Positions 1 to 20,000 of a stretch of 20,000 nt of DNA are shown in pieces (positions within the stretch are counted from its first letter, which is position 1; every line of letters begins with the position of its first letter). The notes under the pieces are model-generated. The model was given only the letters and a program-made list of their open reading frames with translations, was not told the DNA's origin and did not search any database. Location: contig CP142735.1 of the NCBI GenBank assembly GCA_036630325.1, forward strand, positions 1,049,814 to 1,069,813, written 5' to 3'. The position numbers were made by a program, and so were the translations under genes. The stretch is from Vairimorpha necatrix (taxonomy: Eukaryota).

Positions 1-35
1 TACTCTAAAACCTCATATTTCGGCTAACGTCAACA
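1..35 (+). repeat. 3' part of the 5' LTR of element A
   Basis: TACTCTAAAACCTCATATTTCGGCTAACGTCAACA matches 3855-3889 at 35/35 and ends in CA. Confidence 0.95.
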
Positions 36-3000
36 CTGGCGACAACGCAAACCAATCTGTTGAGAAGGACAGATTAAGTACTTTACTAGAAGCAGTGGGC
101 TTCAGGAAGGATGGCATAAGACCATTCAGTGGTAAAGGAGGCATGGAAGTTGAGCTATGGCTGGAACAATTCTCGTATTTAGAAGGGGAATGGAAAGGCG
201 AAAAACTTCTATCCTATATGAAACCCTATGTCGTGGGAAGAGCGAAAAAATGGATGATAGCGATGGAAGACATCGAATATACTGACTTCATCAGTTTTAA
301 ACAAGCTCTTATAACTAAATTTGGTGTAAATAAACAAACGACAAGAAATGAAATCAAAGAGTTATACAGAATATTAATATCTGGTCCTAACGAAAGTGGC
401 CTGGAAGATTTCATAATGGAGGTTATAACCCAGAATAGGAAAGCCAAATTAGAGTTTAATACAGTCAAAATGGAACTGATCGAGTTTTTCCCAACTGTTC
501 TTCACGACAAAGTAAAAGAGTCGATGGACTGGAAGAGCATCATCAAAATCTTAAATGATAACGAAGATTTTATTAAAAGATTAGGTAAATATAATAAAAT
601 TACACCAGAAATAAAGTCTAAAAACTCATCTTTAATAACAAAACAGAGAAAAGATACTAAAGCAGAAATTTCATGTTTTAACTGCGGAGGGCAACATTAT
701 GCGAGTAGATGTCCGAGCAAAAACCAAAATCTGAAGAAAGAAAAAGCGGCTTATTCAAGTTCTAGAAGGGCTCAAATTATTTCTAAAGACACTAAAAAAC
801 TCAACGAAGTCAATGAAAATAAAACTGATTTAGTTTATTTAAAAGTCAAAATTTATAATAAAACTGTTAATGCCTTACTAGATACAGGAGCATCGCATTC
901 GTTTATAGATAAAAGTCTCATACAAGAATGTAAGTTAGAAAACATGAGAAGAGAACGCATAACAACTGCCACTGGTATAGTTTCTAGTTATGGTAGCATT
1001 AATGGAGTCCTAGAGATTGAAGGAAAGAGGTACAAAATCCCCCTCCAGGTGATGTGTCCATTAAGCGAAGATGTAATATTAGGAAGAGATTTCTTGGAAA
1101 TAAACAAAGGAGCGATTGATTTCCATAACAAAAGAATTACTCTTGGGAAAAATATATTAAAAACCGGAAATATAAAAAAAAATATGGATTGTCTGGAGTT
1201 AAGACATATATCTAAAGAGACATCACGACAGCCAAGTGTTCACAGCACATGTAACACAACGTTGGAATTAGTCAAAGACTACTTTGAAAGGCTGAAAGGA
1301 CGTGAAGAAGGTCTCAGCAATACGTTGGGAATAGCCCATAAAATTGATTTACGCCCCAACGTGACAATAGCTAATATGAGAAGTTATACTATGGACGGTA
1401 AAAAGAAGGAGTTCATAATTAACGAATGCCTAGAGTTGGCTAAAAATGGAATCATAACAGAAAGCGTGAGTAGGTGGAATGCACCTATAGTAGTGGTTAA
1501 AAAACGCACGGGAGGACACAGGATGTGTATAGATTATCGAGAATTAAATAATCGAACGGTAAAAGAAGTTTGCCAGCCTCCAACTATTGAGGAGTGCCTT
1601 AATTCATTGAGTGGAGCCAGATATTTCACACAATTAGATCTAGAAAAGGGGTATCATCAAGTGCCCATGGATCCAGAGTCACAAGAGTTGACAGCCTTTA
1701 TGTCACCAGTAGGTAAGTTTCAATATAGAATGATGCCTTTCGGCTTAACTAATGCCCCGGCAACATTCCAGAGACTAATGTATGGAGTTTTCAGAAATTT
1801 AATAAATTCCAAAGTCGTAGTTTATATGGACGACATTACCATATATAGTAAAACGCATGAAGAACACCACAGAGATGTAAGAGAGGTCCTTCAAGTCTTG
1901 TTAGCAAACGGACTTAAAATAAGTACTGAGAAAAGCGTTTTCTGCACGAAGAGGGTGGATTTATTAGGTCATTCAGTAATGGATGGAAAGGTATTCCCAG
2001 ATGAAAAGAGACTAGGTCCTTTTAAAGATAAGCTAAAGATAGAAACTATTAAACAGTTACACTCATTTGTTGGCGGAATAGGCTACTTCAGAAACTATTT
2101 TAAGAATTTTTCTAGTAAAACATTTATATTAAACGAAATAATCAATAGGAAAAGAGAATTTTCAAAAATTGAAGTTGAGAAAACTGTAAATGACTTACGA
2201 CTAGAATTAATAAATTCGGCGTTTTTAGAACTCTCAAATATGGAAGAGATGTTCATAATAGAAGCAGATGCATCAGATTATTGTATAGGCGGTGTTCTCA
2301 AACAGAAAAAGAATCAGAAGGATGTGGTCATCAGATTCTGTAGCAGAAATCTAATGCCTGCTGAGAGGAACTATCCTACACTTGAAAAGGAAACTCTTGC
2401 AATAATTTATGCGGTGAAGACTTTTAAAAACTATTTACATAAAAAATTTGTCATAAGAACAGATCACAAATCTCTTGTATGGCTTTATAAAGTCAAGAAT
2501 CCACAAGGAAGGATTGCTAGATGGTTGATGTTCCTGGCAGACATGGAATTTGTGATTGAATATAAGAAAGGGAAAGATAATGTAGTAGCAGACTGCCTTT
2601 CAAGAGTCCAATTAAAATCAATAACCAAGGAAGATGGCGATGGGGCGTCTACGAAATTAATCTTAGAAGCTCATTCCTTAACTGGACATAGTTGTGCCAA
2701 TAACACGTACAATTTTTTGAAGATACATCATGCGGGATCAGGAATATCTCGAGATAGAGTGAAAGATATATTGAGAACATGTGGAACATGTTTAAAATTT
2801 AAAAGGAATAGACCGTTCAAACAATATCCAACAAATGTAGAAGGAACATTCATGGAAATTGGGATCGACTGCATCGGTCCACTGCCAAAGTCGAAATCAG
2901 GACACAAATTCATTGTTCTCGCAACCGACTACTTTACTAAATGGGTTGAGGGTAAAGTTCTAAAAAAGAAATCGGCAGAAGAGATAGCAAGATTTCTAGT

Positions 3001-3175
3001 GGAAGACGTATTCTCAAGACATGGGACGGTCAAAACGATCAGGAGTGATCAGGGATTAGAGTTCACAAATAAACTAGTGAACTCAGTGCATCGTTATGGG
3101 GAAGTAGATTTAAACATTCATCTCCATACCACCCACAAGCTAATGGTCTTGCAGAGAGAACAAACAAGACCATGA
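2..3175 (+). CDS. Gag-Pol polyprotein of element A (Gag, zinc knuckle, aspartic protease, RT, RNase H, N-terminal integrase); frameshifted near 3087
   Basis: The frame of the 95..3175 ORF is open back to base 2. Motifs: CFNCGGQHYASRC (674-712), LLDTGA (DTG at 881-889), MPFGLTNAPATFQR, YMDD (1823-1834), EADASDY...TDHKSL...ADCLSR (RNase H), HSLTGH...CGTC (HHCC), GIDCIGP and RSDQG (integrase D, D). Confidence 0.93.
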   Translation, partial: TLKPHISANVNTGDNANQSVEKDRLSTLLEAVGFRKDGIRPFSGKGGMEVELWLEQFSYLEGEWKGEKLLSYMKPYVVGRAKKWMIAMEDIEYTDFISFKQALITKFGVNKQTTRNEIKELYRILISGPNESGLEDFIMEVITQNRKAKLEFNTVKMELIEFFPTVLHDKVKESMDWKSIIKILNDNEDFIKRLGKYNKITPEIKSKNSSLITKQRKDTKAEISCFNCGGQHYASRCPSKNQNLKKEKAAYSSSRRAQIISKDTKKLNEVNENKTDLVYLKVKIYNKTVNALLDTGASHSFIDKSLIQECKLENMRRERITTATGIVSSYGSINGVLEIEGKRYKIPLQVMCPLSEDVILGRDFLEINKGAIDFHNKRITLGKNILKTGNIKKNMDCLELRHISKETSRQPSVHSTCNTTLELVKDYFERLKGREEGLSNTLGIAHKIDLRPNVTIANMRSYTMDGKKKEFIINECLELAKNGIITESVSRWNAPIVVVKKRTGGHRMCIDYRELNNRTVKEVCQPPTIEECLNSLSGARYFTQLDLEKGYHQVPMDPESQELTAFMSPVGKFQYRMMPFGLTNAPATFQRLMYGVFRNLINSKVVVYMDDITIYSKTHEEHHRDVREVLQVLLANGLKISTEKSVFCTKRVDLLGHSVMDGKVFPDEKRLGPFKDKLKIETIKQLHSFVGGIGYFRNYFKNFSSKTFILNEIINRKREFSKIEVEKTVNDLRLELINSAFLELSNMEEMFIIEADASDYCIGGVLKQKKNQKDVVIRFCSRNLMPAERNYPTLEKETLAIIYAVKTFKNYLHKKFVIRTDHKSLVWLYKVKNPQGRIARWLMFLADMEFVIEYKKGKDNVVADCLSRVQLKSITKEDGDGASTKLILEAHSLTGHSCANNTYNFLKIHHAGSGISRDRVKDILRTCGTCLKFKRNRPFKQYPTNVEGTFMEIGIDCIGPLPKSKSGHKFIVLATDYFTKWVEGKVLKKKSAEEIARFLVEDVFSRHGTVKTIRSDQGLEFTNKLVNSVHRYGEVDLNIHLHTTHKLMVLQREQTRP
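37..46 (+). promoter_or_regulatory. Primer-binding site of element A (TGGCGACAAC, possibly tRNA-Ser)
   Basis: TGG begins 1 nt after the LTR's CA end. It is complementary to a tRNA ending ...GUUGUCGCCA, which resembles fungal tRNA-Ser 3' ends (recalled; not checked against host tRNAs). Confidence 0.75.
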
Positions 3176-3771
3176 TAGAAAAAATATCAAAAGCCATGGT
3201 AGATCATGAACAGAACTGGGATAGAGTATTCCCGTATGTGTTAATGCAATATAGGATTGGTATAGTGGAACGCTTTAATGCGTCACCCTTTATGTTACTA
3301 TACGGCAGAGAGCCTTTAGTTCCAAGCAATTTAATTGAGATACCATCAGACTTTGATTTATATTTTGTTGATCCAATTGAATATGTAAGACAGAAAAGAG
3401 AGAAAATAAATATTATTAAAGAAAGAATAATGGAAGTAGAAGATAAGAAAAAGGCTAAGTCTAACGAACGAAACTTATATAAAGCAGACCCCAATGACTT
3501 AGACATAGGAGATACAGTTCTTTTAAAGAAACACGCACTATTGAAGAGAAAATTCGAATCACCATACGAAGATGAAGAGTTCGAAATTATCACTAAGAAA
3601 GGCAAAGGTGCTTATCAAATAAGAAGTTGTAATGGAGGGAAAACATTTGATATTAATCGAAAAGATTTAGTTGCTGTAACCGAAACTGAAAAGACGATAT
3701 CTTATTTGATGAAGGGGAGAGTGTGGACGGCGGATAGTCCGGACCAATCAGATTGTCTTCTTGACATCTGA
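3088..3771 (+). CDS. C-terminal half of element A integrase (continuation after the frameshift)
   Basis: This frame reads ASLWGSRFKHSSPYHPQANGLAERTNKTMIEK..., then SPFMLLYGREP and a GPY/F-like region (KFESPY). The stop at 3769-3771 lies inside the 3' LTR. Confidence 0.9.
   Translation, partial: ASLWGSRFKHSSPYHPQANGLAERTNKTMIEKISKAMVDHEQNWDRVFPYVLMQYRIGIVERFNASPFMLLYGREPLVPSNLIEIPSDFDLYFVDPIEYVRQKREKINIIKERIMEVEDKKKAKSNERNLYKADPNDLDIGDTVLLKKHALLKRKFESPYEDEEFEIITKKGKGAYQIRSCNGGKTFDINRKDLVAVTETEKTISYLMKGRVWTADSPDQSDCLLDI
3711..3721 (+). promoter_or_regulatory. Polypurine tract of element A
   Basis: GAAGGGGAGAG lies immediately before the TG that starts the 3' LTR. Confidence 0.9.
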
Positions 3772-3889
3772 AACATGATAATTCTGAAACAACGTTTCAG
3801 AATTAAATATAAATACATCCTCGAATTTATGAGGATGGGCAATAATAAAAAGAATACTCTAAAACCTCATATTTCGGCTAACGTCAACA
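3722..3889 (+). repeat. 3' LTR of element A (168 bp)
   Basis: Ends are TGTGGACG...CGTCAACA (7/8 terminal inverted repeat). It follows the PPT, its last 35 nt equal bases 1-35, and it has a TATAAAT at 3808-3814. Confidence 0.92.
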
Positions 3890-4337
3890 ATTTAGAAAAA
3901 ACATGTTGGCCATGTAAAAGAAGGTGTGTAGTAATTTGGTAGTCCGTAATGAATTTTGCTTTTTTTTAATGATAAAGATAATTAAAACAACGGATTATAT
4001 TACAATAAATACTAAATGAAGGATAAATCATCAGATCAAGCCTTGTAGAATTCTAATATTTTTTTATCGATGCTAGGTTCCTATTAATCTTGTCAATTAT
4101 ATTTAATGAAACTAATTTTTTTGTAATATTTAATTTATATATTTTGGGATCTAAAATTATCTTCATTTAAGGAAAAAATTTTAAATATATTATAATTAAA
4201 CAAAAATGATATATAAAAAAGTAAATAAGAAAGTTGTTAGAGTATAATAAAAAAGATACATATATATTAAAATTAAAATATAATATTATATTAATATTGT
4301 TGTGTTATATAAAATAAAAAATAGGTTTAACTATCAA

Positions 4338-4421
4338 ATGCTCAAGAAAGTAGAAGCGTAATCAAGATGATTAACAGAGAAGACAAACGAAATTATTCCA
4401 ATAGACTACCGAAGAAGAATG
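4338..4421 (+). pseudogene. Possible highly decayed C-terminal relic of an RLE-type non-LTR retrotransposon ORF
   Basis: Reads KVEA*SR*LTEKTNEIIPIDYRRRM, loosely like the EAYIQS..LKKTLESIS..YRR tail of the family matched at 6816-7013. The match is weak and made by eye. Confidence 0.25.
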
Positions 4422-4876: not shown

Positions 4877-5032
4877 TACTGTCAAACTCTATGAGATGTA
4901 AACAAACAAAAAAGAAACTAAACTTTACTAAATACGTAGTACTTCGTGTGACATGCCTTTTTCTTACTTTTAGTTTGTGAATGTCAAACATGTCTAATGT
5001 TTGTTTACAATACTTGGTGATGTTTGACAGTA
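4877..5032. repeat. Fold-back / MITE-like element with nested inverted repeats
   Basis: TACTGTCAAAC (4877-4887) pairs with GTTTGACAGTA (5022-5032). TGTAAACAAACA (4897-4908) pairs with TGTTTGTTTACA (4998-5009). AAACTAAA (4915-4922) pairs with TTTAGTTT (4969-4976). Confidence 0.6.
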
Positions 5033-6815
5033 CCAATAATCATTGTTTAATTATAAGCAAGTATCGTCAGTGCAGGTCTGCAGCCTCACACATCTGAATA
5101 AATAATAATGTTGTTATTTCAAAAAATTATTTCTTGCACAATTTAGTACATTTTTTTAGAGGTACCAACGTATGTATCTGTATAAATAATATTTTAAGAA
5201 ATTTAGATTTATTTGTCTTTTCGTGTGAGTACGTAAGTATATAATTTGCTGTATATAAAATAATTATGAAACGCATTATGTGCAGAATCGACATAAAAAT
5301 AAAAAATTGAAGTAAAGTTAAACATATTAATTCGGCTTTGGACAAATACGTTAATTAAACATTATATTTATTCCTTTTTGAAAGATAAAAACATATTTTA
5401 TAAACAAGTAAATTAGATTCTTTCAAAAAAAAAATAAAAAACAATCATTGAGTGATTTAATTACAAGAAATGTCTGATACTATATATCAACTATTTAAGA
5501 CACATAATTTAGCATAACAATATATTTGTTGAAAAAATTAGGATATATTATATACAAGAAATAAGATTATAAATCTATCTAAAATAATTTAGGCAGAGGC
5601 ATTAGAGTATTTTAATAAATGTTAAAAAACCAAAACTTGTATACTAAATACAAAGGTTTCATGGAAGTGTGTATTAACGATTACATCATAAGGACAGTTG
5701 TCAAAGTTTACATCAAATATTCACCAACCACGTTCCAACACATTAATAATACAACAAAAAATAAAAAATTAACAATATGTTTATCCATGCAAAAAAATTA
5801 ACCTTTAACTTACGTGGCTAAAAAATTATTACAATAAAAGAAAAAATTTAAAGAAAGAGTTTGTATATGAAGGGCAAGGAATATCTATGAAGCAAGTACA
5901 CAATCATAAAGTTACTAATGGCAAAAATTTTTTAGCCTTCTATTTAGAAGTAGCAAAGTTTTATTTATGAAGAACAGGGAAATAAATAAAAAATAAGAAG
6001 GAGCATATTGGTTATAAGAAAAAATATTTTTAAAACGAACTCTACAATCTATCTAAATTTACAACGTAGGTAATAACAAGATAATTTAAATTTGATTTTT
6101 TCTTTTTTCATTTGGTATAAGTACGAAAGAAAAAAAATGGAATTAATTTTACGATCAAAAATATGACTGTTTTTAAAGTTGATACAAATAATATTCATTT
6201 ATTAAAACTAGATAGTATTGGATTTTAAAGAAAAGGTATACAAATGATTCATACATATTGCGTTGCACTATAAATACATAAGATTTCAAAATAAGATATA
6301 CAATCAAGATATTAGATGAAATACAATTTTCTTTTAGATTAAAATCTACGCTAAGATGAACAAAAATAAATCCCAAAATTGCATATAGTATTATTTAAGT
6401 ACAATTAACACAAGAAATTAAGTTTTTTAATTATAGAAACATATCAGATGATTTTATAAATGAAAATTATACTAAAAAATCAACGATATTATATTTATAT
6501 ATGTCTAATATGTACACTTTATTAAGTTTAATTATTAATAATGGTAAAAAAACGAAAACAAATATTATATAAAAATTTTTAACGGATTTCGATTAACCTC
6601 GTATATTACATTTTTTTGGTTTATAGAATTCTAAAGAAGTTTCAATTATAAAACATTGTAGACTTTTGAAATCGAAGTTGGTAAAAAACTAATGTCACAA
6701 ATATTAATTTGTTGTTTACAATCATATTGACCACACAAAATTAGAAATTATGACCAAAAAATTCTAAAAAGTTTAATCATTAATACTTTAATCATATTTA
6801 TAAAAATATATTAAT

Positions 6816-7013
6816 TTATTATTAATTTATGTGATGACGTGGGATGGAATAGTAACTAATTTTCACCGTACGCATATCAAAGTGCTCAGATTAGAACCCA
6901 GAACGAAAGCATATATACAGTCAAGATTTCTTAAAATGACTTTAGAAAGCCTAACTATGCAGCCTGATATGGGCTTGTTACAGATCAAGAAGGGGTCTTC
7001 GAGACCCCAATAA
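6816..7013 (+). pseudogene. 3' fragment of a non-LTR retrotransposon with a restriction-like endonuclease (R4/Dong-like) C-terminus
   Basis: Reads YVMTWDGIVTNFHRTHIKVLRLEPRTKAYIQSRFLKMTLESL. This resembles the PYVMTWDGIVT...AYIQS.VLKKTLES tail I recall from microsporidian RLE-type retroelement proteins. It is a local GC island with no upstream RT. Confidence 0.55.
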
Positions 7014-10000
7014 GTGAATCTCAGAAAAAAGTTCTGTAACTACCAGATGAGACTGCAAGCGTATCGTGTGAAAAGTAAAAAATAAGCCGAATATTATACC
7101 CAAATGAATTATATAATTTTATTAGTAATTTCAAATAAATAAGAACAAATTCAATTAAAAAATCTTTCAGTTAAATATCTAAGAATTGCTCTTTTGTTAT
7201 ATATAATACTTTCTAAATCCGTTAAGTATAATATTTTTATATAATAATTAGATTAAAATGTAAGTATGAAAATCGAAATATTATAAAAAGAGGTCATTTA
7301 CGAAAGAAAAAAAAATCCAAATTCATTAACAATATCGTAAAATTATATATTTTTAAGAAAATCTCTTATTTAATGTATAATTAGAAGAATTGAAAAACTT
7401 ATTTAAATTAACAGTATAAAATAAGACCTATTCATTGTAAAATCGTTCTGTAATTATAAAAAGAATTTTACTTAGAAATAACATTTATGTTATTGATATC
7501 AAAAAATCCTAAGGAAAACCTACTTGAAAATATTTTTTTCTATTATAATATAATAAGAAATAATAAGTAAATTTTTAATTATGAATAATTAAAAAAACAA
7601 TAACACATACAATTTAATACAAGGTTATTTTGAATAAAACGATTTTGTGATTTTGAAAAAGGTTCGCATATTCAAAAAATTAAAACCAAAAAATGGGGGG
7701 GGGAATATAAATGCATATAAATCCAATACAGTTAATAACAATAATGAAATTAATTATGAAATCTAATTTTAAAAAACCTTAAATACCATAGTTACACGCA
7801 AAAGGAATATATATTTCAAAATTTATTTATTTAAGAAGAAAATAATTTTAATAAATATAAAGAGTATTAAAAAAAATAAACATGATTAATATTAGCCTAA
7901 TTAATATTAAAAAACCCCACTAAAAATATGTTAATACACGACAAATATTTTTCAATAATAATACTATATAATATTTCACCTGGACGTTTTCAAAATATTT
8001 ACAAAAAAATAAAAGAAAAGTTTAAAAGCTAGAATTTGATATATTAAATTTTAACAAAATGGTAATACTTCAAGAATCCAAATGAAAATCTATAAAACGA
8101 AAACACCTAAATTATGTTGCTATATCGTTAGTCTGAAAAATCTAAAAGTATTCTTAAGAAATTAAATTTTTAGAATATATAAGAATTCATTTACACATAT
8201 TTAAATAAAAAAATAAAAATTTTTATTATTTAGCATAAAAATGAAATATTATTAGTTAAAAGACGAAACTTAAAAATTCCTCTTATAAAATAAAAAATTT
8301 CGTTCTTTGTCTTTAATTATCAGATATTTAAATTTTTTGAATCAAAAATTTTATATAACTGTTATAGTCAATATTTTTGAAAAAAAATTGAAATTAAATT
8401 ATGATATTATATATTGTCTATAGTTCAATAAAATGCGTTAGATTAAATTTAAGTATGAAAAGGTCAAGAAAATTTTTTACTTCAATATAAATTTTATAAC
8501 ACAAAAATTTATCTACAAGTAAAATAAACATAATGCTATAAAAATCTTTTAAAAAACTAATATATTTCGAAATGCATTTTCAATAAAGATAATTGAGGTT
8601 AATATTACAAAAATAATTTTTAAAAGAAAATATATTTTAATTAGTAGGATAACTTTTTTTTAAAAAAAAAACATATTGGACTAAAACTCGTTTTGAAAAT
8701 AAATATTTTCTTTTAGAATAGTTAATAAAAACATTCAAACTAAACATTCAAATAATTTTCGATAAGTAAAAAGAAGAAACTTTTCATACAATTAAATTTT
8801 TACGACTAATTAAGCTAGAAGTCTCAACCACTTAAACGAAAAATATATTTTTTGAATATTAAATTGAATTTTTCATTTTCAAATTTCGCTCATAATAATA
8901 CACATACGACTTTTAGAATAAGTAATAGTTTTAGAACATATAACGACGTAATCTTTTTTAAAAATAATATATCAATCGAAAATTAACAATGCAATATATT
9001 ACACCTACATTATAAACATGATGATATATTCAACCTACACGAGAAACAAATGATTCACTAACGAAAAATTTATAAAAATATTAAAAATAATTTATTGTAA
9101 TTTTTTAAATTTGTATTTCAAAAGAAACCATATCACGGAGGGTTTTAGAAAATTGTAATTAAAGTTATTAAAAAACTATCAATATTTCAAAAAGTTTTAA
9201 AAATGATTTAAATTATTCTTATGGTAAAACATTAAATACTATTTATCGCAAGGAAGCATTGGAGAGTTTTTCATATCTAAAAACTCATTTTTTTATGCTT
9301 AACTTATTTTTTTTCAATTATTATAAAAACGTAGCATATATAAACCAAATAATATAAGAAAATTCATAAATAAAAATTTAAAGTCGCAAATAAACATAAA
9401 GACATACGACGAAAATAAAATATAAACATCTATAGAGGAACACAAAGAAAGACATTTCATTCTGTTATCATTTATTACAACTGTGTTTTGAAATTTCTGG
9501 TTATAATCTGTAAAAATATTATAAAATAAAATACAAAAAATTATTATAAAAGAAAAAATGATAAATATCTAAGAAATAAATCTAATAATGATCAGAAAAC
9601 ATATTAAATACAAATTAAAGATAATATAATCAATATTCATACAAATTGTAAATTTATACACAAAACTGAGCTGGAAATGAATTTTGTATCTTCATGTGAA
9701 GTTTCTAGTAAATATCATATATTCCACGGATTTATTTTTAATACTATAATTATGATGGGAATAAAATCAAAATAAATACAGAATTAGTAAATTTATTGAA
9801 AAATATCTTACACTAACCGAAGAATTAAAAATTTAAATCAATAAGAGCTAAGAAGGGATAATAAAAAGTATAAATAACCCCAATGCAGCTAATATATAGA
9901 TATTTATATAAATTTAAAAGTAATATAATGTAAGAGCATATAATTTAAAAAAAAATCTTATCTTTAATAATGACAGAAAATAGTTTAAATAAAATATTTT

Positions 10001-11198
10001 AATGCAAAAACCCAATTACATATATAACATAGATGCGGTTGACGATTTCTAATAATTATAAAATTTTATTATTTTAAATATTAATTGATAAAAAAATATA
10101 ATAAAAATTTGATAAATTAAATTTTAAATATTTTAATAAAAAAATCTTTATGAATTTTTTGGAATAAACATTTTGATTTTCGTAGAATAAAATCAATCTA
10201 ATGATTTTATTAAAAATTAAAATTTTTTATAACCCCTGAATTGGTTTTATCATAAAAAATTACATTTTAACATAACACATTGTGTAAAACATTTTCATAG
10301 AAATTGTTAAGTTACTTTCAACTATCCGCAATTTTTTACGCAATAATTTTGAATATACAACATATCTGAATCGAAAAAATTTATCAATATTAACTGATTA
10401 TCAAATATTAAAACTGGTTCTCTTCATAATTAAAATTATATGATGATCAAGCAAGAAGTACATCGAAAGTTGTAGAAGAAAATATAAAACATAACTAGGA
10501 GATTATGATCATATAATCAAATATTTTTCTTATAGAATGTATTTTTTTATTATCCAATATTTTCACTCCCTCTTATTTTAAAAATATTATATTTACTCCA
10601 TAAAAAATTGAATCCCAAAGAGAACATAAAAAATAGACAAAATATCATTTGTAATTTTAAAAGACTTCCTGAACAGTTGGGCAAATACATAGATAAATAA
10701 GATTGTACATTAGAAAAAGCCGCATCCCTATGCAGAGCCAAGAAGATATAAATATTCAATAAAAAAATCAAAAAATAAATTTTTCTAAAATTTTTTATTC
10801 TATAAATATAAATTAAATCATATTACTTTAGATATATCAAAATTTTTTTCATTGGTCTATTTTTATATCACATAATTTTATAATGAAATATTTAAATTTA
10901 ATTAGTTATTCGTATTGTATTTTCACACAAACGCTGAAATCTAGTCCTTAATGTTTCCAAATTCTTACGTCCTTTTACTTTCTTTAAATAATGATTCAAT
11001 TTTATTATTCAAAGTGGTTATCATGAGCTTTCCTAAAATGTATAAGCTCTTTGTCTGTATATATGCGTTAGTACAGCATTCGAGATTTAAGTTATTTGTA
11101 TAATATCGCTAAATATTATTTTTTTTAGTATAATTCGAATATTTCCAGTATAAAATATGTTAAAACACAAAAATGACCGGGTTTACAATAATATATAT

Positions 11199-11247
11199 TG
11201 TTATAATCAGTTATAATATTAAACCCTAATTATGTTAAGCACTTATA
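11199..11247 (+). repeat. 5' LTR of element B (49 bp)
   Basis: TGTTATAATCAGTTATAATATTAAACCCTAATTATGTTAAGCACTTATA, repeated at 14291-14339. The 3' boundary is uncertain by 2 nt because of the TA run. Confidence 0.9.
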
Positions 11248-13418
11248 TGGGGGCGATACCTAAAGAAGAGTTCACAAGAGAGGACTGTGGCCAAGTGGTC
11301 AGAAAGATGTTACAGGAGTTAGAGCGTATATTGTATGAATTGGATTTGAGAGATGTGGAGAGAGAGAAATGGAAGAGTGAGCTGTTCAAGTTGGCTTCGA
11401 TGGATTTAAAAGATTTTATTGTGAGAAATATCAAAAAAGAAGAAAATATTGAAGGAATAAGGAAGAAGCTATTGTTAAGGATTAAGGAAGTAGAGGAGGA
11501 AGAAAAGATATATGAGGAAATGAGAAAAATTATTTCTAGGACTATAAATGAAGAAATTAGTAGAGAACAACCAATACAAAAATCGAGAGTACCGAGATGC
11601 TTCTATTGTGATAGACAAGGGCATAGGGTGTTTGAATGCAGACTGAAGATTAATAGAGATAATTATTATAAAAAGAATAACAAGGATAACAGTTGCAAAA
11701 TGGAAGTAGGTAGTGAATCAGAGTCAAGTCAGGAGCGAGATTTTAGAAGATCAAAAAGAGGACTTAGAGTCAAATATGAGAAAAATCAAAAAGAATATGC
11801 CGTTAAAGAGGAGAGTAAGAGAATCAGATTAAATTTAGATAAGTATGCTAAGAGTTTTGGAGAGGTTTTTAAGTTAGGAAAAGAGGAGATAAAATATTGT
11901 AAACTGGAAAAATGTAAAATTAATACTGAAGCGGGTATGAAGGTATTTAAAAAGGGACAAATGGTTCCGCAGGCGTTGATAAAAGATACAGAGCTACATC
12001 TAGAAGATTTATTAAAAAGGAAAGTGATAAGAGAGTTAAATTCAAGTTGGAGGAATCCTATAAGGTCAATCAGAAAGCCAAATGGTGAGATAAGACTGGT
12101 TAGTAATTTGATGGCATTGAACGATATTGTAGAAAAGGACGAGTATAGATTGTCTAACATAAGAGATGTTGTAAGAGCTACACAAGGTGCAAAATATATG
12201 ACGGTTTTCGACTTAAAAGAGGCCTTCTATAGTATTGAGATAGAGGAGGAGGATAAACATAAGACGGCGTTTGATTTTAATGGCAAGGTTTATGAATGGA
12301 ACTCTATGGTTATGGGATATAAGAATAGCCCGCAGATATTGCAGAGAATTATGGATAGGATTTTTAGAGATATGAAAGGCAAAGGAGTAGAGGTGTATAT
12401 GGACGATATTGTGTTGTACAGCCGAACGATAGGAGAACACGAGCAATTAGTGAAAAGGGTATTAAATAGACTGAAGGAAAACAATATGAAGCTGAATGCA
12501 AATAAAGTTCAGTTTTGTCAACGTGAAGTTAAATTATTGGGAGTCACTTTAAATGGAGAAGATATAATACCGTCAGAGATAAAGAAAAATGAAGCCCTAG
12601 AGTTTCCGATACCAACATGCGTGTCAGATGTACGAAGATTTTTAGGAATGACGGGTTGGTTCAGAGATTTTATTAAGAATTACGCTGGATTGACAGTTAG
12701 GTTGACAGATAGTTTAAAAGGGAAGAATGATAATTGGAAGTGGACGGATGATATGAAAAACGAGTTTAATAATTTAAAAGAAGTATTGAAAGGCCTAGGA
12801 AAGCTGCGAATAGCAGACTATGATAAAGAATTTTTGTTGAGGACTGACGCTAGTAATGTAGGCATGGGCGCAGTACTGTTACAGAAAAATAATCAAGGAG
12901 AATGGGTGCCAGTACAGTGGGCGTCTAAGAAGTTTACCGTTACGGAAGTTAATTATGGTATATCAGAAAAAGAAATGTACGCAGTTTTTTGGGGCGTTAA
13001 AAAGTTTGAATATGAATTAAGAGGTAGGAAATTTAGAATAGAAACTGATCATAAAGCGTTGGGCGAAATAAGAAACAAGCCCGACTTTAAGAATGCTAGA
13101 ATTAATAGATGGGTCGAGAAGATTCAGGAATTTGATTTCGTGATAGAATATAGAACTCCAGAAAATATGGTCGTAGCCGATGCGCTAAGTAGGGTATATA
13201 CAAAAGAAAAAGATGCAAAGAAAAAGAGAAATGAAATACGCCGTGATAGACAAAAAGAAGGGAAAAGAAATAAGCATGTAAAAATTGTAGAAGGTAAAGA
13301 ATACTGGGTATTTGATAGTGGTAGAGAAGGCGAGATGCCTTTGGAACAAGACAGAGAGATTAATAATGGATTGTCATGTCAATTTGAGCCACAGAAGCAG
13401 AACAACGGTATATTATGA
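11232..13418 (+). CDS. Gag-RT-RNase H polyprotein of element B (no protease); frameshifts into integrase near 13355
   Basis: Motifs: CFYCDRQGHRVFEC (11598-11639), FDLKEAFYSI, YEWNSMVMGYKNSPQILQR, YMDD (12396-12407), RTDASNVGMGAVL...TDHKAL...ADALSR. Confidence 0.92.
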   Translation: MLSTYMGAIPKEEFTREDCGQVVRKMLQELERILYELDLRDVEREKWKSELFKLASMDLKDFIVRNIKKEENIEGIRKKLLLRIKEVEEEEKIYEEMRKIISRTINEEISREQPIQKSRVPRCFYCDRQGHRVFECRLKINRDNYYKKNNKDNSCKMEVGSESESSQERDFRRSKRGLRVKYEKNQKEYAVKEESKRIRLNLDKYAKSFGEVFKLGKEEIKYCKLEKCKINTEAGMKVFKKGQMVPQALIKDTELHLEDLLKRKVIRELNSSWRNPIRSIRKPNGEIRLVSNLMALNDIVEKDEYRLSNIRDVVRATQGAKYMTVFDLKEAFYSIEIEEEDKHKTAFDFNGKVYEWNSMVMGYKNSPQILQRIMDRIFRDMKGKGVEVYMDDIVLYSRTIGEHEQLVKRVLNRLKENNMKLNANKVQFCQREVKLLGVTLNGEDIIPSEIKKNEALEFPIPTCVSDVRRFLGMTGWFRDFIKNYAGLTVRLTDSLKGKNDNWKWTDDMKNEFNNLKEVLKGLGKLRIADYDKEFLLRTDASNVGMGAVLLQKNNQGEWVPVQWASKKFTVTEVNYGISEKEMYAVFWGVKKFEYELRGRKFRIETDHKALGEIRNKPDFKNARINRWVEKIQEFDFVIEYRTPENMVVADALSRVYTKEKDAKKKRNEIRRDRQKEGKRNKHVKIVEGKEYWVFDSGREGEMPLEQDREINNGLSCQFEPQKQNNGIL
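11248..11256 (+). promoter_or_regulatory. Primer-binding site of element B (TGGGGGCGA, tRNA-Pro-like)
   Basis: It directly abuts the 5' LTR. TGGGGGC is the classic start of tRNA-Pro PBSs; the host tRNA was not checked. Confidence 0.75.
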
Positions 13419-14274
13419 GTTGAGGAAACAGTATTATTGGCCAGGAATTAAGGATCAGATCGAAAAGGTCCTTAAGAATTGCGAGACTTGTCAGATTTTT
13501 AATAGAAAAACGAGTGGCGGTACTGATTTAGTGAACACGACAAGATATTTAGAGAAGGTTGGCTTAGATTTAATAGAATTTAGGGATGAGAAAGCGTTTA
13601 TTGTTTTGGCAGTTGATTACTTTACAAGGAGATTATGGGGCAGAGTATTGAAGAGCAAGCACGCATATGGAATTGCCGAATTTATCAAGGATTTGTGTAA
13701 ACAGGGTAGAAAACCAGAGGAAATCATTACGGATAATGGTAAAGAGTTTTGCAACGAAAAAGTTACCGAGCTATGTAGAAATTTGGATATTAGTCATAGA
13801 AAGGTCAGCGTTGAGTCGCACAGAAGTAATGGAAGAGTAGAAAGAGTTATTAGAACTGTAAGAGATAGTATTTTAAAGAGCCAAAAAGAGAAATTCGAGA
13901 ACAAGGTTTATGAAGCTATTGAGAAATATAATTTAAGTTTTCATGCTGGTATTAAGTGCACGCCAGTAGAAGCTTTAACCGATAATACAGAAAATGTTAG
14001 TATGAAGAATAGTCCAGAGGGAAAGTATGCCCAACAGTTCAAAAGTTGGTTTAGAGAAAAGTTCAAAAGGAACCAGATAGTTAGGGTTGCCAAGAATGAG
14101 AATTTAAAGGGATGTAGTAAGTATAGTAAGGGTCGATTTTTAGACATGGGAAGAGTGATTGAGCTATGTCCAGGGGATTCATATATAGTGAGATTAGAGA
14201 ATGGAAGGTTGGTGAAAAAAAGGCATTATGATCTTAAAGGTGTAGTGGATTTAAAGTATGTTGAAGGAGGCTAA
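13312..14274 (+). CDS. Integrase of element B (homology starts ~13351, after the frameshift)
   Basis: HVNLSH...CETC zinc finger; GLDLI, ITDNG and RVERV with exactly 35 residues between the second D and the E (DD35E); stop at 14272-14274 just before the PPT. Confidence 0.92.
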   Translation: MIVVEKARCLWNKTERLIMDCHVNLSHRSRTTVYYELRKQYYWPGIKDQIEKVLKNCETCQIFNRKTSGGTDLVNTTRYLEKVGLDLIEFRDEKAFIVLAVDYFTRRLWGRVLKSKHAYGIAEFIKDLCKQGRKPEEIITDNGKEFCNEKVTELCRNLDISHRKVSVESHRSNGRVERVIRTVRDSILKSQKEKFENKVYEAIEKYNLSFHAGIKCTPVEALTDNTENVSMKNSPEGKYAQQFKSWFREKFKRNQIVRVAKNENLKGCSKYSKGRFLDMGRVIELCPGDSYIVRLENGRLVKKRHYDLKGVVDLKYVEGG

Positions 14275-14280
14275 CCGTCT

Positions 14281-14290
14281 GGAGGGGGGA
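14281..14290 (+). promoter_or_regulatory. Polypurine tract of element B
   Basis: GGAGGGGGGA immediately precedes the 3' LTR and is identical to the PPT of element C. Confidence 0.9.
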
Positions 14291-14339
14291 TTTTATAATC
14301 AGTTATAATATTAAACCCTAATTATGTTAAGCACTTATA
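14291..14339 (+). repeat. 3' LTR of element B (49 bp)
   Basis: 48/49 identical to the 5' LTR (TT instead of TG at the start); followed by the TATAT TSD. Confidence 0.9.
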
Positions 14340-14441
14340 TATATAACAAATTAAAGAAGTAATTTCATACTTTTACAATATAATATTACATAAATTAAAT
14401 TCGCAGAATTACACCAAAAATACTTTGTGTTTTAATTATAA

Positions 14442-14479
14442 TGTTATAGTTTAACCTCCTATTAAATAAATGTATAACA
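14442..14479 (+). repeat. 5' LTR of element C (38 bp)
   Basis: TGTTATAGTTTAACCTCCTATTAAATAAATGTATAACA has a perfect 7-bp terminal inverted repeat (TGTTATA/TATAACA) and is followed directly by TGGCAAACAC. Confidence 0.87.
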
Positions 14480-17400
14480 TGGCAAACACAAAAGACTAAA
14501 GGGTAACAAGTGATACCTGTGTTTAAGAGAAGAGAAATTACTAAAAGAAGCTCAGAGAGTAGAAGCAATCATCAGAATGCAGAATGATGTAAAAGATGTA
14601 AAAGATGTGACAACGAAGCAGTCGATAAAACAAGAATTCTGAACTTCAGGATTTTATTATTGATAAAAATTTAATTAGTATGATAAATTGGAATGATATT
14701 ATTGATGAAATTGATAAATTAGTTGTGAAGAGAAGAAGAATAAGAACAAGGAAAAAATAGGAGTAAAGAACTAGAAGATATGGTAGAGGTTATGAAAGTA
14801 AAATTAAAAAGAAGATTAAATGATAACTGACTCAGACTGTAGCAGTGCCAGGAAGAAACTTTCAATATCAAAGACGAGAAGAAAAACATTGTTTTATATG
14901 TGGAAGAATTATACATATAGCTAGAGGTTGTATGGTGCGTAAAAAAAGAAAGGAAGAGGATAATGAAAATAAAAGTGATAAATATTTTGGCATTTGTGAT
15001 AATAGTAAAATGAAAATATTAAAAAAAAAAATATTTTAAATTAAGACTACCAGTGGAGGTAGAAAGATAGAACTCAAACAACGTTTTTATGTGGAAAAAA
15101 ACTGCAATAAAAAGAGAAAAATATTAATAAATATAAAGAATTTGAAGGAAAATTTTTTGAGGTATTAGGAAAATACGATGGGAAAATAAAATACTTAACA
15201 GGATGAAAATGTTCTATCAAAACAAAACAAGGAGTGAAAGTAGTTATAAAAAGACAAAATAGTTCTTAAAATTCGAGAAAAGTTAAAAAAGTATATTAAT
15301 TTTTTAGAAAGTAGAGGTATTATCAGAAGGACAAAGAGCGAATGAAGAAGCCTAATAAAGCACATAGAAAAACCAAATTTTAATGTACAATTGAAAAGCA
15401 ATTTGATGAATTTAAATGAACTGGTTTAAAAAGATCCTATGAATTGCCATTATTTAGAGACATTATTAACGCAACGCAAGGTTCTAAAGTATTTATGGTT
15501 ATAGACCTAAACGAAGGATCCTATCATATAGAAATTGAGAAAGCTCAAAAGCAAAAGACAGCTTTTGAGATAAATGTTAGAGTTTACGAATGGAATAGCA
15601 TGGTAATGAGATTTAAAAATCTTCATATATTATGTAAAAAGTGATGAACGGAGTTTTAGATAAGTTTAGAGGCAAGGTGTTGAGGTGTACATGAATGATA
15701 ATATTATTTATGCAAGAGATAGTAATATACACGAAAATTTTTTAAAACAAGTAATTCAAAAAATTAATTAATGTGGATTAATAGAAACAGAAAAAAGATA
15801 CAGTATAAAGGAGAAGTATCACTACTATGAGTAACAATTAACGGAAAAGACATTGAACTTAACGAAATTAAATTGCAAGAAACATTAGATTTAGAAGGCC
15901 TAACAAAATGAAAGAGCTTAAGAGATTTTGGGGGTGGCAGGCTGGTTTAGAGATTTATTCCCAATTATGCTTATCGGGCAGCACGTCTTACAGAAGCACT
16001 AAAAAAAATAGTAAATGGGATTGTCCTGAAGAATGAAAGGCTTTATGGAAATCAAAATGGGTTTGAAGATTATGAAAAAATTAAAAATAGTAGATAGTAA
16101 AAAAATGTATAGAGTATGAACGGATCCATGCGATACGGTAATTGGAGCCATACTTATGCAAGAGACAAGAAAGGTTGATTCCGAAACAATGAGCATCAAA
16201 AATGTTAAAACCAACAGATAAAAAGTATACGATTAGTGAAAAAGAGATGTTGGCAGCGTTATTTGGAATAAAGTAATTCGAGTCAGATTTGGGGGAAGCA
16301 AATTTCAATAATGATAAATCATAAAGGACTAACCGAGATTAAAAACAAACCGTTTTTCAATAATTACATAATTAATAGAAAGAATAAAAAATACAAGAGT
16401 ATGATTTTACTATTGAATATGTAAAAGGTGAATGGATGCCGTATGTGGATGCTCTTAGTAGACATTTTAAACTAACGAAGTGAAAGAAAGCAGCGAAAGT
16501 AGAAACGGGCTAAAAATAAATGAAAAGAAAAGAAAAAAAGCACATGGTTAAAAGAGAAGGCAAAAACTATTGGAAGTTCACAACAGGAGAAATTAATAAG
16601 TACTACTCAAAGAAATAAGAGAGACAGAAATTTGTAGAGTTCATGAGGAATTAAATCATCGAATAGTGAAAAAACTTATTATAAGGAAAAACAAAGATTG
16701 TACTGGCCAGGTATTGGACCAGATAACCACAACGCTAAAAAATTGTGAAGTATGTCGCAATAATAACAGAAAAACGACCGGAGGTTTCAATTTTGTTTCA
16801 ATATTTAAGAAATTTATAAAAGTAGCTAACGTATTGAATATTGGGCAAGTAGAAAGATACGTGCTATTAGGGATGGACTACTTTGAACAGGATATGTGAC
16901 GCAAAGATAGAAAATAATGATAGTGAAATTAGTCTAAAACTTTATAAAATGGATATTTGAAACAGATACCTCGATGAATAGATTACGGAAAACATAAGGA
17001 ATTTTTAGTAAGAATTTTGTAACTTGGTGTATTGAAAACGAAATTATGCAATGGAAAGTAGGTTCAGAAGCTCATAGGAGTAATTGAAGAATATTACAAT
17101 GTATAAGAACAATAAGGGAATCGATGATCAATCAAAAAGAAAGAAACCCAGAGGAAAAACTAGAACAAGCTGTAAGAACCTATAATAACACTCTACACAG
17201 CGATATAAAATACACTCATGGAAGCATGGAAAGAACAAAAAAAAGAAGTCTTAATTGAAAACGATACAAACGGTGTGTATGCAAGTAAGTTTAAACAAAG
17301 GCATAGAGAATAATTTGAAGTAGATCAGGCTGTGAGAATCGCAAGATAAAAAACTTGTGTAAGAAGATGAAAAGTATGAAAGGAAGATTTACAAATGTTT

Positions 17401-17524
17401 GTAAAATAATGGGAAAGTGTAGGAATGATTCTTATATTATAAGGACTGATAGCGGAAGATACATTAAGAAACGTAATATGACCTAAAAGATTTTAAAATG
17501 GAAAATTAGAAGCTTGTAACGTGA
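14470..17524 (+). pseudogene. Degraded gag-RT-RNase H-integrase of element C (many stops and frameshifts)
   Basis: Relics in order: CFICGRIIHIARGC (14890-14931), IDLNEGSYHIEI, YEWNSMVM, YMND (15688-15699), YTISEKEMLA, LKNCEVCRNNNRKTTGG, SEAHRSN. All are collinear with element B. Confidence 0.9.
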
Positions 17525-17536
17525 GACTACCCGTTT

Positions 17537-17546
17537 GGAGGGGGGA
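17537..17546 (+). promoter_or_regulatory. Polypurine tract of element C
   Basis: GGAGGGGGGA immediately before the 3' LTR. Confidence 0.88.
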
Positions 17547-17584
17547 TATTAAGGTGAACTTTCCTATTAAATAAATGTATAACA
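17547..17584 (+). repeat. 3' LTR of element C (38 bp)
   Basis: TATTAAGGTGAACTTTCCTATTAAATAAATGTATAACA ends in CA and is followed by the TATAA TSD. Confidence 0.87.
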
Positions 17585-17744
17585 TATAATCATTAATCTG
17601 AAAAAAAATAATTGAATTAAAAAGATAGTTAGATAAATTTTATCTAAAAATTTTCATTTTTTATTTATTTTAGTTACATATTGATGTAACTGAATTTTTT
17701 TAAACAAAAGATTCAGGAAGTTCTAAGGGCTAAAATCTAACGTG

Positions 17745-20000
17745 TTAGGTTAGGTAGGTTAGGTAAGTTAGGTAGGTAGGTTAGGTAGGTAGGTTAGGTA
17801 GGTGGTAGGTAGGTAGGTTAGGTAGGTAGGTAGGTAGGTGGTAGGGTGGTAGGTAGGGTAGGTAGGTAGGTAGGTAGGTAGGTTAGGTAGGTTAGGTAGA
17901 TAGGTAGGTTAGGTAGGTAGGTTAGGTAGGTAGGTTAGGTAGGTTAGGTTAGGTAGGTAGGTTAGGTAGGTTAGGTAGGTTAGGTAGGTTAGGTAGTAGG
18001 TTAGGTTAGGTTAGGTAGGTAGGTTAGGTAGGTTAGGTAGGTTAGGTTAGGTTAGGTAGGTTAGGTAGGTAGGTTAGGTTAGGTAGGTTAGGTAGGTAGG
18101 TTAGGTAGGTAGGTTAGGTTAGGTAGGTTAGGTTAGGTAGGTTAGGTAGGTTAGGTAGGTTAGGTTAGGTAGGTTAGGTAGGTTAGGTAGGTTAGGTAGG
18201 TTAGTAGGTTAGGTTAGGTTAGGTAGGTTAGGTAGGTAGGTAGGTTAGGTAGGTTAGGTTAGGTTTAGGTTGGTGGTAGGTGGTTAGGTAGGTAGGTTAG
18301 GTAGGTTAGGTAGGTTGGTGGTGGTAGGTTAGGTAGGTTAGGTTGGTTAGGTTAGGTAGGTTGGTAGGTTAGGTAGGTTAGGTAGGTTAGGTAGGTTAGG
18401 TAGGTAGGTAGGTTAGGTAGGTTAGGTTAGGTAGGTAGGTAGGTAGGTAGGTTAGGTAGGTAGGTAGGTAGGTAGGTTAGGTAGGTTAGGTTAGGTAGGT
18501 AGGTAGGTAGGTTAGGTAGGTAGGTAGGTAGGTTAGGTTAGGTAGGTAGGTAGGTTAGGTAGGTAGGTTAGGTAGGTAGGTAGGTAGGTTAGGTAGGTTA
18601 GGTAGGTTAGGTAGGTTAGGTAGGTAGGTAGGTTAGGTAGGTTAGGTAGGTTAGGTAGGTTAGGTAGGTAGGTAGGTAGGTAGGTTAGGTAGGTTAGGTT
18701 AGGTAGGTAGGTTAGGTAGGTAGGTTAGGTAGGTTAGGTAGGTTAGGTTAGGTAGGTTAGGTAGGTTAGGTAGGTAGGTAGGTTAGGTAGGTAGGTTAGG
18801 TAGGTAGGTTAGGTAGGTAGGTAGGTAGGTAGGTAGGTTAGGTAGGTAGGTTAGGTAGGTAGGTTAGGTAGGTTAGGTAGGTAGGTAGGTAGGTTAGGTA
18901 GGTAGGTAGGTAGGTTAGGTAGGTTAGGTAGGTAGGTTAGGTAGGTAGGTTAGGTAGGTAGGTAGGTAGGTAGGTTAGGTAGGTAGGTTAGGTTAGGTAG
19001 GTTAGGTTAGGTAGGTTAGGTAGGTTAGGTAGGTAGGTAGGTTAGGTAGGTAGGTTAGGTAGGTAGGTTAGGTAGGTAGGTTAGGTAGGTAGGTAGGTTA
19101 GGTTAGGTTAGGTAGGTTAGGTAGGTAGGTAGGTTAGGTTAGGTAGGTTAGGTAGGTAGGTAGGTAGGTAGGTAGGTTAGGTAGGTTAGGTAGGTAGGTA
19201 GGTAGGTAGGTAGGTTAGGTTAGGTAGGTTAGGTTAGGTAGGTAGGTAGGTTAGGTTAGGTAGGTAGGTTAGGTTAGGTAGGTTAGGTTAGGTTAGGTAG
19301 GTAGGTTAGGTAGGTTAGGTAGGTAGGTAGGTAGGTAGGTAGGTTAGGTAGGTAGGTAGGTAGGTAGGTAGGTTAGGTAGGTTAGGTTAGGTAGGTTAGG
19401 TAGGTTAGGTAGGTTAGGTAGGTAGGTAGGTTAGGTAGGTAGGTTAGGTAGGTAGGTTAGGTTAGGTAGGTTAGGTAGGTTAGGTTAGGTAGGTTAGGTA
19501 GGTAGGTAGGTAGGTTAGGTAGGTTAGGTAGGTAGGTAGGTAGGTTAGGTAGGTTAGGTAGGTAGGTTAGGTAGGTAGGTTAGGTAGGTAGGTAGGTAGG
19601 TAGGTTAGGTAGGTTAGGTAGGTTAGGTAGGTAGGTAGGTAGGTAGGTTAGGTAGGTAGGTAGGTAGGTAGGTTAGGTAGGTAGGTAGGTTAGGTAGGTA
19701 GGTAGGTTAGGTAGGTAGGTAGGTAGGTAGGTTAGGTAGGTTAGGTAGGTAGGTAGGTAGGTAGGTTAGGTAGGTTAGGTAGGTTAGGTAGGTTAGGTAG
19801 GTAGGTAGGTAGGTTAGGTAGGTAGGTTAGGTAGGTAGGTAGGTAGGTTAGGTAGGTAGGTTAGGTAGGTTAGGTAGGTAGGTAGGTTAGGTAGGTTAGG
19901 TAGGTAGGTAGGTAGGTAGGTAGGTAGGTAGGTAGGTAGGTTAGGTAGGTTAGGTAGGTAGGTAGGTAGGTAGGTTAGGTAGGTAGGTAGGTTAGGTAGG
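17745..20000 (+). repeat. Telomeric repeat array T(1-2)AGG: irregular mix of TTAGG and TAGG, at least 2.25 kb
   Basis: An uninterrupted G-rich strand runs 5'->3' to the window end, the orientation expected of a right chromosome end. Variant units (TGG, TAGGG, TAAG, TAGA, TTGG, TTTAGG) are confined to the proximal ~620 bp. Confidence 0.92.

Follow-up and report, generated by a model that had tools for sequence, protein, structure and literature searches.

Evidence for a hyper-compact, protease-less Ty3/gypsy clade, mostly of Microsporidia, from two insertions near a telomere-like array of Vairimorpha necatrix

The DNA considered here is a 20-kb window (20,000 nucleotides) of contig CP142735.1 of the microsporidian Vairimorpha necatrix. 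It contains three long terminal repeat (LTR) elements, all on the plus strand, and a telomere-like array at its far end; the order is element A (1-3891), an AT-rich stretch without long open reading frames (ORFs), element B, a 102-nt gap and element C. A carries a protease and serves as the comparison element. B encodes a gag-like N-terminal domain, a CCHC zinc knuckle, reverse transcriptase (RT), RNase H and integrase, has a charged spacer where a protease would be expected, and shares this design with C (Table 1). Considered as a whole, B and C are best explained as two insertions of a monophyletic, mostly microsporidian, hyper-compact Ty3/gypsy clade, an explanation that we hold with moderate confidence. 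As the two lie head to tail, only the 102-nt gap apart, one family has inserted repeatedly into this chromosome end; from the end of C to the telomere-like array the distance is 161 nt.

The coding region of B in the window lies in two ORFs, 11247..13418 (frame 0) and 13291..14274 (frame +1), with strong Pfam matches for RT, RNase H and integrase in that order. ORF1 matched RVT_1, RT_RNaseH and zf-CCHC and none of the retropepsin families at E<=0.1, and it has no D-[ST]-G motif N-terminal of RT. A, in comparison, matched RVP_2 at residues 271-383 (E 4.5e-12) and four other retropepsin families, with a knuckle (CFNCGGQHYASRC) at aa 225, the sequence ALLDTGASH at aa 294 and YMDD at aa 608. A first, sequence-only reading of the window had argued that B and C lack the room for a protease, and its spacing measurements were reproduced: from the start of the knuckle to the Y codon of YMDD in B (11598 to 12396), and to that of Y-M-N-D in C (14890 to 15688), there are 798 nt, against 383 codons, or 1149 nt, in A. 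The same holds for its description of two strongly diverged elements (62% nucleotide identity) of 3141 and 3143 bp, each with its own LTR pair and target-site duplication (TSD). Its linker of ~65 charged, low-complexity residues stood as to charge and low complexity and not as to length, since 85 aa separate the end of the knuckle from the first RT block conserved in the family, of which ~60 aa are truly low complexity. In C, residues 122-557 of a relative, P0001, align to 14890-16173 with the space for a protease absent.

Pfam was then applied at E<=1 to an alignment of B ORF1 with 15 full-length relatives (alignment A1, 16 members). RVT_1 and RNase H were matched in 16/16 members, integrase in 15/16 and zf-CCHC in 12/16, with the order RT - RNase H - integrase in 15/16; retropepsin families were matched in 0/16. 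A weak match to Peptidase_A17 appeared in two members, inside RNase H (529-588) in P0025 and at a position that was not located in the second, and P0117, a further protease-less representative, showed one at 506-615, also in RNase H. Between knuckle and RT, A1 is indel-rich and charged, with a basic patch as its sole conserved feature. Among the 41 members with both landmarks, the spacer is 45-189 aa long and composed of 15% E, 14% K and 9% R, the ~25 aa at its C-terminal end forming a conserved RT lead motif. D[ST]G occurred N-terminal of RT in one of 37 members, in the low-complexity context DSISDSGSENE, a 2A-like NPGP motif occurred in none of the 37, and no conserved cleavage-site-like motif was found in the spacer, either in A1 or in the 41-member comparison.

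Structure prediction gave the same picture. AlphaFold2, run on B residues 1-250 with a 21-sequence alignment, placed helices at 12-34, 39-49, 52-61 and 68-107 with a predicted local distance difference test (pLDDT) score >90 and gave the knuckle a pLDDT of 76-90, while the spacer (143-224) scored 40-60, essentially without secondary structure and with no beta domain. In the positive control, the protease-bearing sister P0170 (seven sequences), 8 strands were predicted at 137-224 (pLDDT ~56-83), between the knuckle and RT, and its short helical N-terminus and knuckle were similar to those of B. When the family was compared with 7 protease-bearing sisters using hhalign, 771 columns aligned at probability 100, starting exactly after the sisters' protease; the N-terminal parts of the two groups do not align at profile level. 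As Pfam, AlphaFold2 with its control and hhalign agree, the absence of a protease is real and lies at the position where one is expected, and the earlier statement that the linker holds no protease family or fold is borne out. The element is without a protease and without spare room for another domain.

The N-terminal 250 residues of B gave 0 matches at E<=0.001 in a Foldseek search against PDB, and the best match of the VIA wide search (Z 6.3) was to generic helical bundles, a result that neither identifies nor rules out a capsid, a protease or any other fold. A row for the Arc C-lobe (4x3x) was weak for the helical domain (E 2.2, TM 0.50 over 65 columns) and is a lead only. The gag-like part of the family is too small for a two-lobed capsid. 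That the helical domain has no assigned fold could be taken to favour a cryptic or novel protease inside it or in the spacer, as could the difficulty of detecting retropepsins by profile, low detection rates being given in a portion of Muszewska 2011 (PMC3248453). Such a protease is nevertheless very improbable: in the AlphaFold2 model only helices make up the confidently folded part and the spacer is disordered, the one invariant N-terminal residue in A1 apart from the knuckle is a glutamate near the start, the shortest spacer has 45 aa, ~25 of them belonging to RT, and the same tools do find weak proteases in outgroups.

A word-based protein search with B ORF1 returned 93 proteins. Among the first 47 of these, no precomputed retropepsin family was present, and 19 are ORFs of 985-1188 aa with 44-70% identity, on contigs that are mostly ~3.0-3.4 kb, a few being much longer (up to 26 kb). 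The family thus encodes gag and pol in one ORF of ~1000 aa and carries microsporidian source names, those given being Nosema granulosis, Vairimorpha necatrix, Vairimorpha apis, Enteropsectra breve and Nematocida sp. Two family proteins (P0032, P0039) and the loci L006-L009 are filed under the names of bacterial metagenome-assembled genomes (Clostridium sp., Turicibacter sp., Bacteroidales); because these contigs encode a eukaryotic retroelement family, microsporidian contamination of those bins is evident. In viral contigs, no family relative was found.

When 1.84 billion representatives were searched exhaustively with the profile, more protease-less members came to light (P0095, P0100, P0112, P0117, P0163 and P0128, with P0112 annotated as a hypothetical protein in Nematocida sp. 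AWRm77), as did single-ORF relatives with a protease (P0181, P0185, P0189, P0201, P0115, P0126, P0157, P0160, P0170, P0207 and P0204, with P0176 marginal), in which the protease sits between knuckle and RT. The protease-bearing sisters P0170, P0115, P0126/P0242, P0181, P0160, P0185 and P0157 are like the family in having a single ORF, a four-helix N-terminus and a CCHC knuckle, their RT, RNase H and integrase are colinear with and homologous to those of the family, and they are its nearest neighbours in the tree; they differ in a D[ST]G retropepsin of ~90-100 aa at that position. The sisters' contigs, at 3.45-3.73 kb, are longer than the protease-less contigs by ~0.35-0.5 kb, about one protease. 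The best solved relative of the family profile was Ty3 Gag-Pol (7q5b, E 3e-99); Ty3 RT/RNase H (4ol8) matched at 2e-83 and the integrase of PFV at E 1e-19. By RT, RNase H and integrase the family is Ty3/gypsy; it departs from that group in the protease and stretches its range of LTR length.

Trees were built from RT-RNase H segments extracted with a hidden Markov model made from A1. In the first (LG+G4, quick search), which kept 63 of 95 sequences after 32 with incomplete coverage had been dropped, 36 family rows formed one clade with a Shimodaira-Hasegawa-like approximate likelihood ratio test (SH-aLRT) value of 100, and P0048, with weak retropepsin matches at residues 48-144, lay outside it. 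The second tree, with a careful search, comprised 48 rows: a chosen subset of 20 of the 36 family rows, 5 new protease-less rows, 12 protease-bearing rows and 11 distant ones. Here all protease-less rows (25/25) fell into one clade (ultrafast bootstrap 95, SH-aLRT 72). This clade lies within a larger one of 37 rows (95/84), the remaining 12 of which are all protease-bearing. With these labels, those of P0007 and P0012 being taken from precomputed Pfam lists and those of several sisters from sub-threshold Pfam matches, one state change is needed, and the same number in 96% of 200 bootstrap trees. The sequences therefore place a single loss of the protease in a predicted compact ancestor of the layout gag-knuckle-protease-RT-RNase H-integrase. 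We read the branching that followed as a deep diversification across Microsporidia, which may have proceeded by descent, by transfer or by both. After the loss, selection kept the ORF intact while the clade diversified and went on transposing. The sequence-only reading had taken the design for an old lineage and not a one-off deletion, and this is upheld by a spacer without a protease, by close full-length relatives that likewise lack one, and by a single-loss tree in which protease-bearing relatives stand outside one protease-less clade.

Table 1. Positions of the elements and their parts in the 20-kb window
Feature	Position	Strand	Remarks
Element A, protease-bearing comparison element	1..3891	+	5' end cut by window
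A, DTG motif	881-889	+	
Element B, complete protease-less Ty3/gypsy-like element, 3141 bp	11199..14339	+	LTR pair, boundaries, TSD
B, TSD TATAT	11194..11198 (5' copy), 14340-14344 (3' copy)	.	read from sequence
B, 5' LTR, 49 nt (TGTTATAA...CACTTATA)	11199..11247	+	AAACCC motif 21 nt before ATG
B, putative primer-binding site (PBS) TGGGGGCGATACC	11248..11260	+	inside coding region; same layout in C and L003
B, gag-like N-terminal helical domain, four helices (residues 12-107 from ATG 11247)	11280..11567	+	AlphaFold2 pLDDT >90
B, CCHC zinc knuckle (CX2CX4HX4C)	11598..11639	+	invariant C/C/H/C in alignment A1; Pfam zf-CCHC in 12/16 members
B, spacer at protease position, 85 aa	11640..11894	+	charged, indel-rich, predicted disordered
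B, reverse transcriptase and RNase H	11895..13133	+	Pfam RVT_1 12069-12551, RT_RNaseH 12816-13133; YMDD 12396
B, (AG)n run	13345..13352	+	2 nt short in window copy, ORF split there; X1 and X2 contigs
B, integrase	13351..14274	+	Integrase_H2C2 13351-13506, rve core 13564-13800, C-terminal region to stop 14272-14274
B, polypurine tract GGAGGGGGGA	14281..14290	+	abuts 3' LTR
B, 3' LTR, 49 nt	14291..14339	+	T at 14292 in window, G in runs X1 and X2
Element C, same design, 3143 bp	14442..17584	+	old, decayed family member
C, TSD TATAA	14437-14441 and 17585-17589		
C, LTRs, 38 nt, TG..CA	14442-14479 and 17547-17584	+	9 mismatches within first 15 nt
C, knuckle; Y-M-N-D	14890; 15688	+	
C, polypurine tract	17537-17546	+	

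The state of B was compared between the window and contigs of two public sequencing runs from two studies, X1 and X2. In both, an extra AG stands behind 13352, and by frame arithmetic this addition joins the two window ORFs into one of 1009 codons, like that of the relatives. Both runs also read G at 14292, so that the two LTRs of B, which in the window are identical at 48/49 positions (1 mismatch) and end in TG..TA, become identical and both TG-initiated. Contigs of run X2 enter two different, unlike flanks at 11193/11199, which points to other insertion sites. Between the window copy and both runs there are 17 coding differences, 6 synonymous and 11 non-synonymous, and together with the 2-nt deletion these indicate decay of the copy in the window. 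The insertion of B is nevertheless young, and intact versions of the element are present in the two runs. Short contigs of X1 (82-98 nt) join sequence like the 5' flank of B (11175-11198) to its 3' flank (14340-14396) with one TATAT, in agreement with the TSD of B. Being short and AT-rich, this junction is a hint of an empty site, allelic or paralogous, and the insertion of B may be polymorphic or missing from a paralogous chromosome end.

C, with 82-103 stops in each forward frame and relatives matched in all three frames, has long been dead and is an old insertion. Both window copies are consequently defective, one by a frameshift and the other by many stops, which is what would be seen if B and C were merely dead deletion derivatives of protease-bearing elements without a lineage of their own. 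That is hardly credible in view of the 19 intact ~1000-aa ORFs at 44-70% identity, the gathering of the protease-less rows in a single deep clade, the intact version of B in two runs, and the several insertion sites; the chance of a 1009-codon open frame at B's base composition is estimated at roughly e^-96. Relative to B, C shows 228 G>A against 118 A>G differences. Hypermutation or editing from G to A was considered for C and set aside, as the per-base rates of G>A (0.28) and C>T (0.20) resemble ordinary GC-to-AT decay.

The LTRs of the family are 38-49 nt long: 49 nt in B, 38 nt in C and 40 nt in L003 (the last two TG..CA), an independent metagenome element with the layout of B and C, one of whose LTRs lies at 540-579. 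L003 is the only one of 5 metagenome loci with a clear LTR pair, and a scan of three of the four loci from metagenome-assembled genomes (L006, L008 and L009) showed none. The TSDs are of 5 bp (TATAT in B, TATAA in C, TTATA in L003), each weak alone because the sequence is AT-rich. A TGG-initiated stretch, the putative PBS, directly follows the 5' LTR, and, next to the stop codon, the polypurine tracts GGAGGGGGGA and AAGGCGGGGA precede the 3' LTR; in L003, likewise, a PBS-like TGG comes directly after the LTR and a polypurine tract abuts the 3' LTR. Self-priming of the Tf1 type was set aside for B and L003, since the LTR, inspected by eye, does not contain the PBS in reverse complement.

The start codon is part of this arrangement. 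In B, the ATG at 11247-11249 straddles the LTR/PBS junction, and in L003 the A of the start ATG closes the LTR while its T and G open the PBS. Of 19 full-length proteins, 16 start with M-[AG], at residue 1 or behind a short upstream extension, which fits an ATG-G at the LTR/PBS junction family-wide. The 5' LTR of B holds another in-frame ATG (11232), 5 codons upstream of the one at the junction, and for several relatives gene callers chose an upstream ATG of this kind, giving N-termini like MNINVH-MA..., which makes the real start point uncertain. An AACCC motif lies 15-21 nt before the ATG in the LTRs of B and L003, with AACCTCC there in C, and AATAAA-like words are found in the LTRs of C and L003. 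In microsporidia, according to a part of Peyretaillade 2009 (PMC2803860), start codons have a CCC-like motif close before them, 5' untranslated regions measure <7 nt and AAUAAA signals occur.

How such an element multiplies was considered on this basis. We infer that maturation by an element-encoded protease is dispensable. The mechanism that we favour, at somewhat short of even chances, is that the uncleaved polyprotein works as such, because a two-lobed capsid would not fit into the gag-like part and no conserved cleavage site is present. It would act as a ribonucleoprotein on its own RNA, the knuckle and the helical domain binding the element RNA, a tRNA would prime at the in-frame PBS, and the RT/RNase H and integrase of the same protein would finish cDNA synthesis and insertion, with no matured capsid.

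Alternatively, the family could be a semi-autonomous parasite that supplies its own RT, RNase H and integrase and has its polyprotein cut in trans by the retropepsin of A-like elements. A, with its DTG motif and its RVP_2 match, lies ~7 kb from B in the same window, the clade's nearest relatives are protease-bearing elements of the same compact layout, and trans-dependence is known for other LTR elements that miss some functions. We nevertheless consider this unlikely. The family's gag-like part cannot be aligned with that of the protease-bearing sisters at profile level, which makes co-assembly with helper particles less likely; A itself is only distantly related to the family, with 38% RT-RNase H identity to its nearest row, P0050; the named host species in which the clade persists number at least five, Nematocida among them; and the spacer offers no conserved cleavage-site-like motif.

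Cutting by a cellular protease in the disordered spacer, and perhaps at the RNase H-integrase junction too, seems improbable to a similar degree. The spacer would be accessible, being long enough, charged and predicted disordered in 41/41 members, and K[KR]x[KR] basic patches occur in 32 of the 41 spacers. Such patches are, however, expected by chance at 23% K+R and fit a nuclear-localisation signal equally, and no conserved site was found in A1. The basic patch of the spacer would also suit nuclear import in the favoured scheme of an uncleaved polyprotein.

Several points weigh against the explanation given here, from the single-loss clade to the uncleaved polyprotein. The SH-aLRT value of the protease-less clade is only 72, and some of the sisters' protease labels come from weak Pfam matches (P0176, E 0.048; P0207, 0.0083; P0126, 0.0058). 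The window copy of B is itself broken and decaying, and the run search listed no RNA sequencing runs with element B. With the protease-bearing A in the same window, help in trans is possible. To our knowledge, all LTR retroelements studied so far need their own protease for transposition, and we know of no 1:1 Gag:Pol fusion that assembles. An LTR of only 38-49 nt would also have to accommodate U3, R and U5. With these points in mind, it is put forward as a tentative proposal, possible and not yet probable, that among LTR retroelements this clade is the smallest with coding competence, and probably an autonomous one: a 'one-protein retrovirus' of 3.1 kb, free of capsid maturation, whose uncleaved nucleocapsid-RT-RNase H-integrase polyprotein would see to packaging, to reverse transcription from a tRNA primer and to integration, and whose LTRs of 38-49 nt would compress promoter, poly(A) signal, strand-transfer repeat and both integrase attachment sites.

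Beyond B and C, the window holds the following. The 5' end of A is missing, an LTR end at 1-36 recurs at 3857-3891, and the 3' LTR spans ~3723-3891 (~169 nt) and is preceded by the tract GAAGGGGAGAG; the total length is estimated at ~4.0 kb. The integrase of A is divided between ORFs 2..3175 and 3172..3771 (overlap 3172-3175), and this copy is probably also frameshifted. From 3900 to 11190, ~7 kb at 17-24% GC are devoid of ORFs of >=100 aa, Rfam families and tRNAs, and scans of the entire window gave 0 Rfam matches and 0 tRNA genes. B and C (11000-17700) have a strongly purine-rich coding strand (A+G ~65%, GC skew 0.32-0.45, cytosine only 9.5%). The array at 17746-20000 (>=2255 nt) consists of mixed TAGG/TTAGG units with a GC skew of 1.0 and continues past the end of the window.

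Among known systems, Ty3 of Saccharomyces cerevisiae (Metaviridae) has the order RT-RNase H-integrase in common with the family and a TSD of 5 bp like the family's. Ty3, at ~5.4 kb, has LTRs of ~340 bp, keeps GAG3 and POL3 in separate frames and possesses both a two-lobed capsid and a protease, whereas the family has 3.1 kb, LTRs of 38-49 nt, one ORF and no protease. DIRS and Ngaro retrotransposons also lack an aspartic protease and have a tyrosine recombinase and unusual repeats; the family differs from them in its DDE integrase (Pfam rve, Integrase_H2C2), ordinary LTRs and TSD. It differs equally from the non-autonomous large retrotransposon derivatives (LARD), terminal-repeat retrotransposons in miniature (TRIM) and TR-GAG elements, as RT, RNase H and integrase are all encoded. 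The hepadnavirus P protein is a multi-domain RT that works uncleaved, a disordered spacer linking an N-terminal domain that engages nucleic acid to RT and RNase H; it has no integrase and is protein-primed, and the capsid protein is made separately, so the likeness to the family is an analogy only.

Within the same host phylum as the family are the groups of Parisot 2014 and the Nbr elements of Nosema bombycis (Xu et al. 2006). The main text of Parisot 2014 (PMC4202319), in which the word 'protease' is absent, describes Microsporidia-specific Ty3/gypsy groups with one polyprotein instead of separate gag and pol, a layout that the present family shares. According to a passage of Williams 2008 (PMC2474625), nearly every element of N. 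bombycis has coding sequence for Gag, protease, RT, RNase H and integrase. Full-text searches of the literature found no description of a protease-less, integrase-bearing LTR lineage in Microsporidia; Xu 2006, figures, supplements and Repbase lie outside that scope, and a prior annotation is possible. Unusually short LTRs are shared with FRetro129/FRetro64 of rice relatives, for which sections of Gao 2012 (PMC3281118) give LTRs of 76-90 bp, TG..CA ends and a 5-bp TSD, call an element with 85-bp LTRs the smallest LTR retrotransposon, and describe the autonomous partner FRetro64 as copia-type, 5234 bp long, with 76/90-bp LTRs. The LTRs of the present family are shorter still (38-49 nt), and it is coding-competent at 3.1 kb.

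The B/C family is among the most stripped-down self-copying retroelements seen. Common LTR finders have a default minimum LTR length of ~100 bp and would probably miss these elements, and the transposable-element content of microsporidian genomes and of contaminated metagenome bins is therefore perhaps under-annotated. In the textbook view, LTR retroelements and retroviruses cannot mature Gag-Pol without a protease of their own. With a deep, diversified and recently mobile clade that has no protease, the minimal retrovirus-like replication module becomes a testable question, and the design suggests a compact RT-integrase machine with an estimated mass of ~117 kDa. If the autonomous, uncleaved reading is true, neither a protease nor a conventional LTR would be essential for the life cycle of an LTR retrotransposon.

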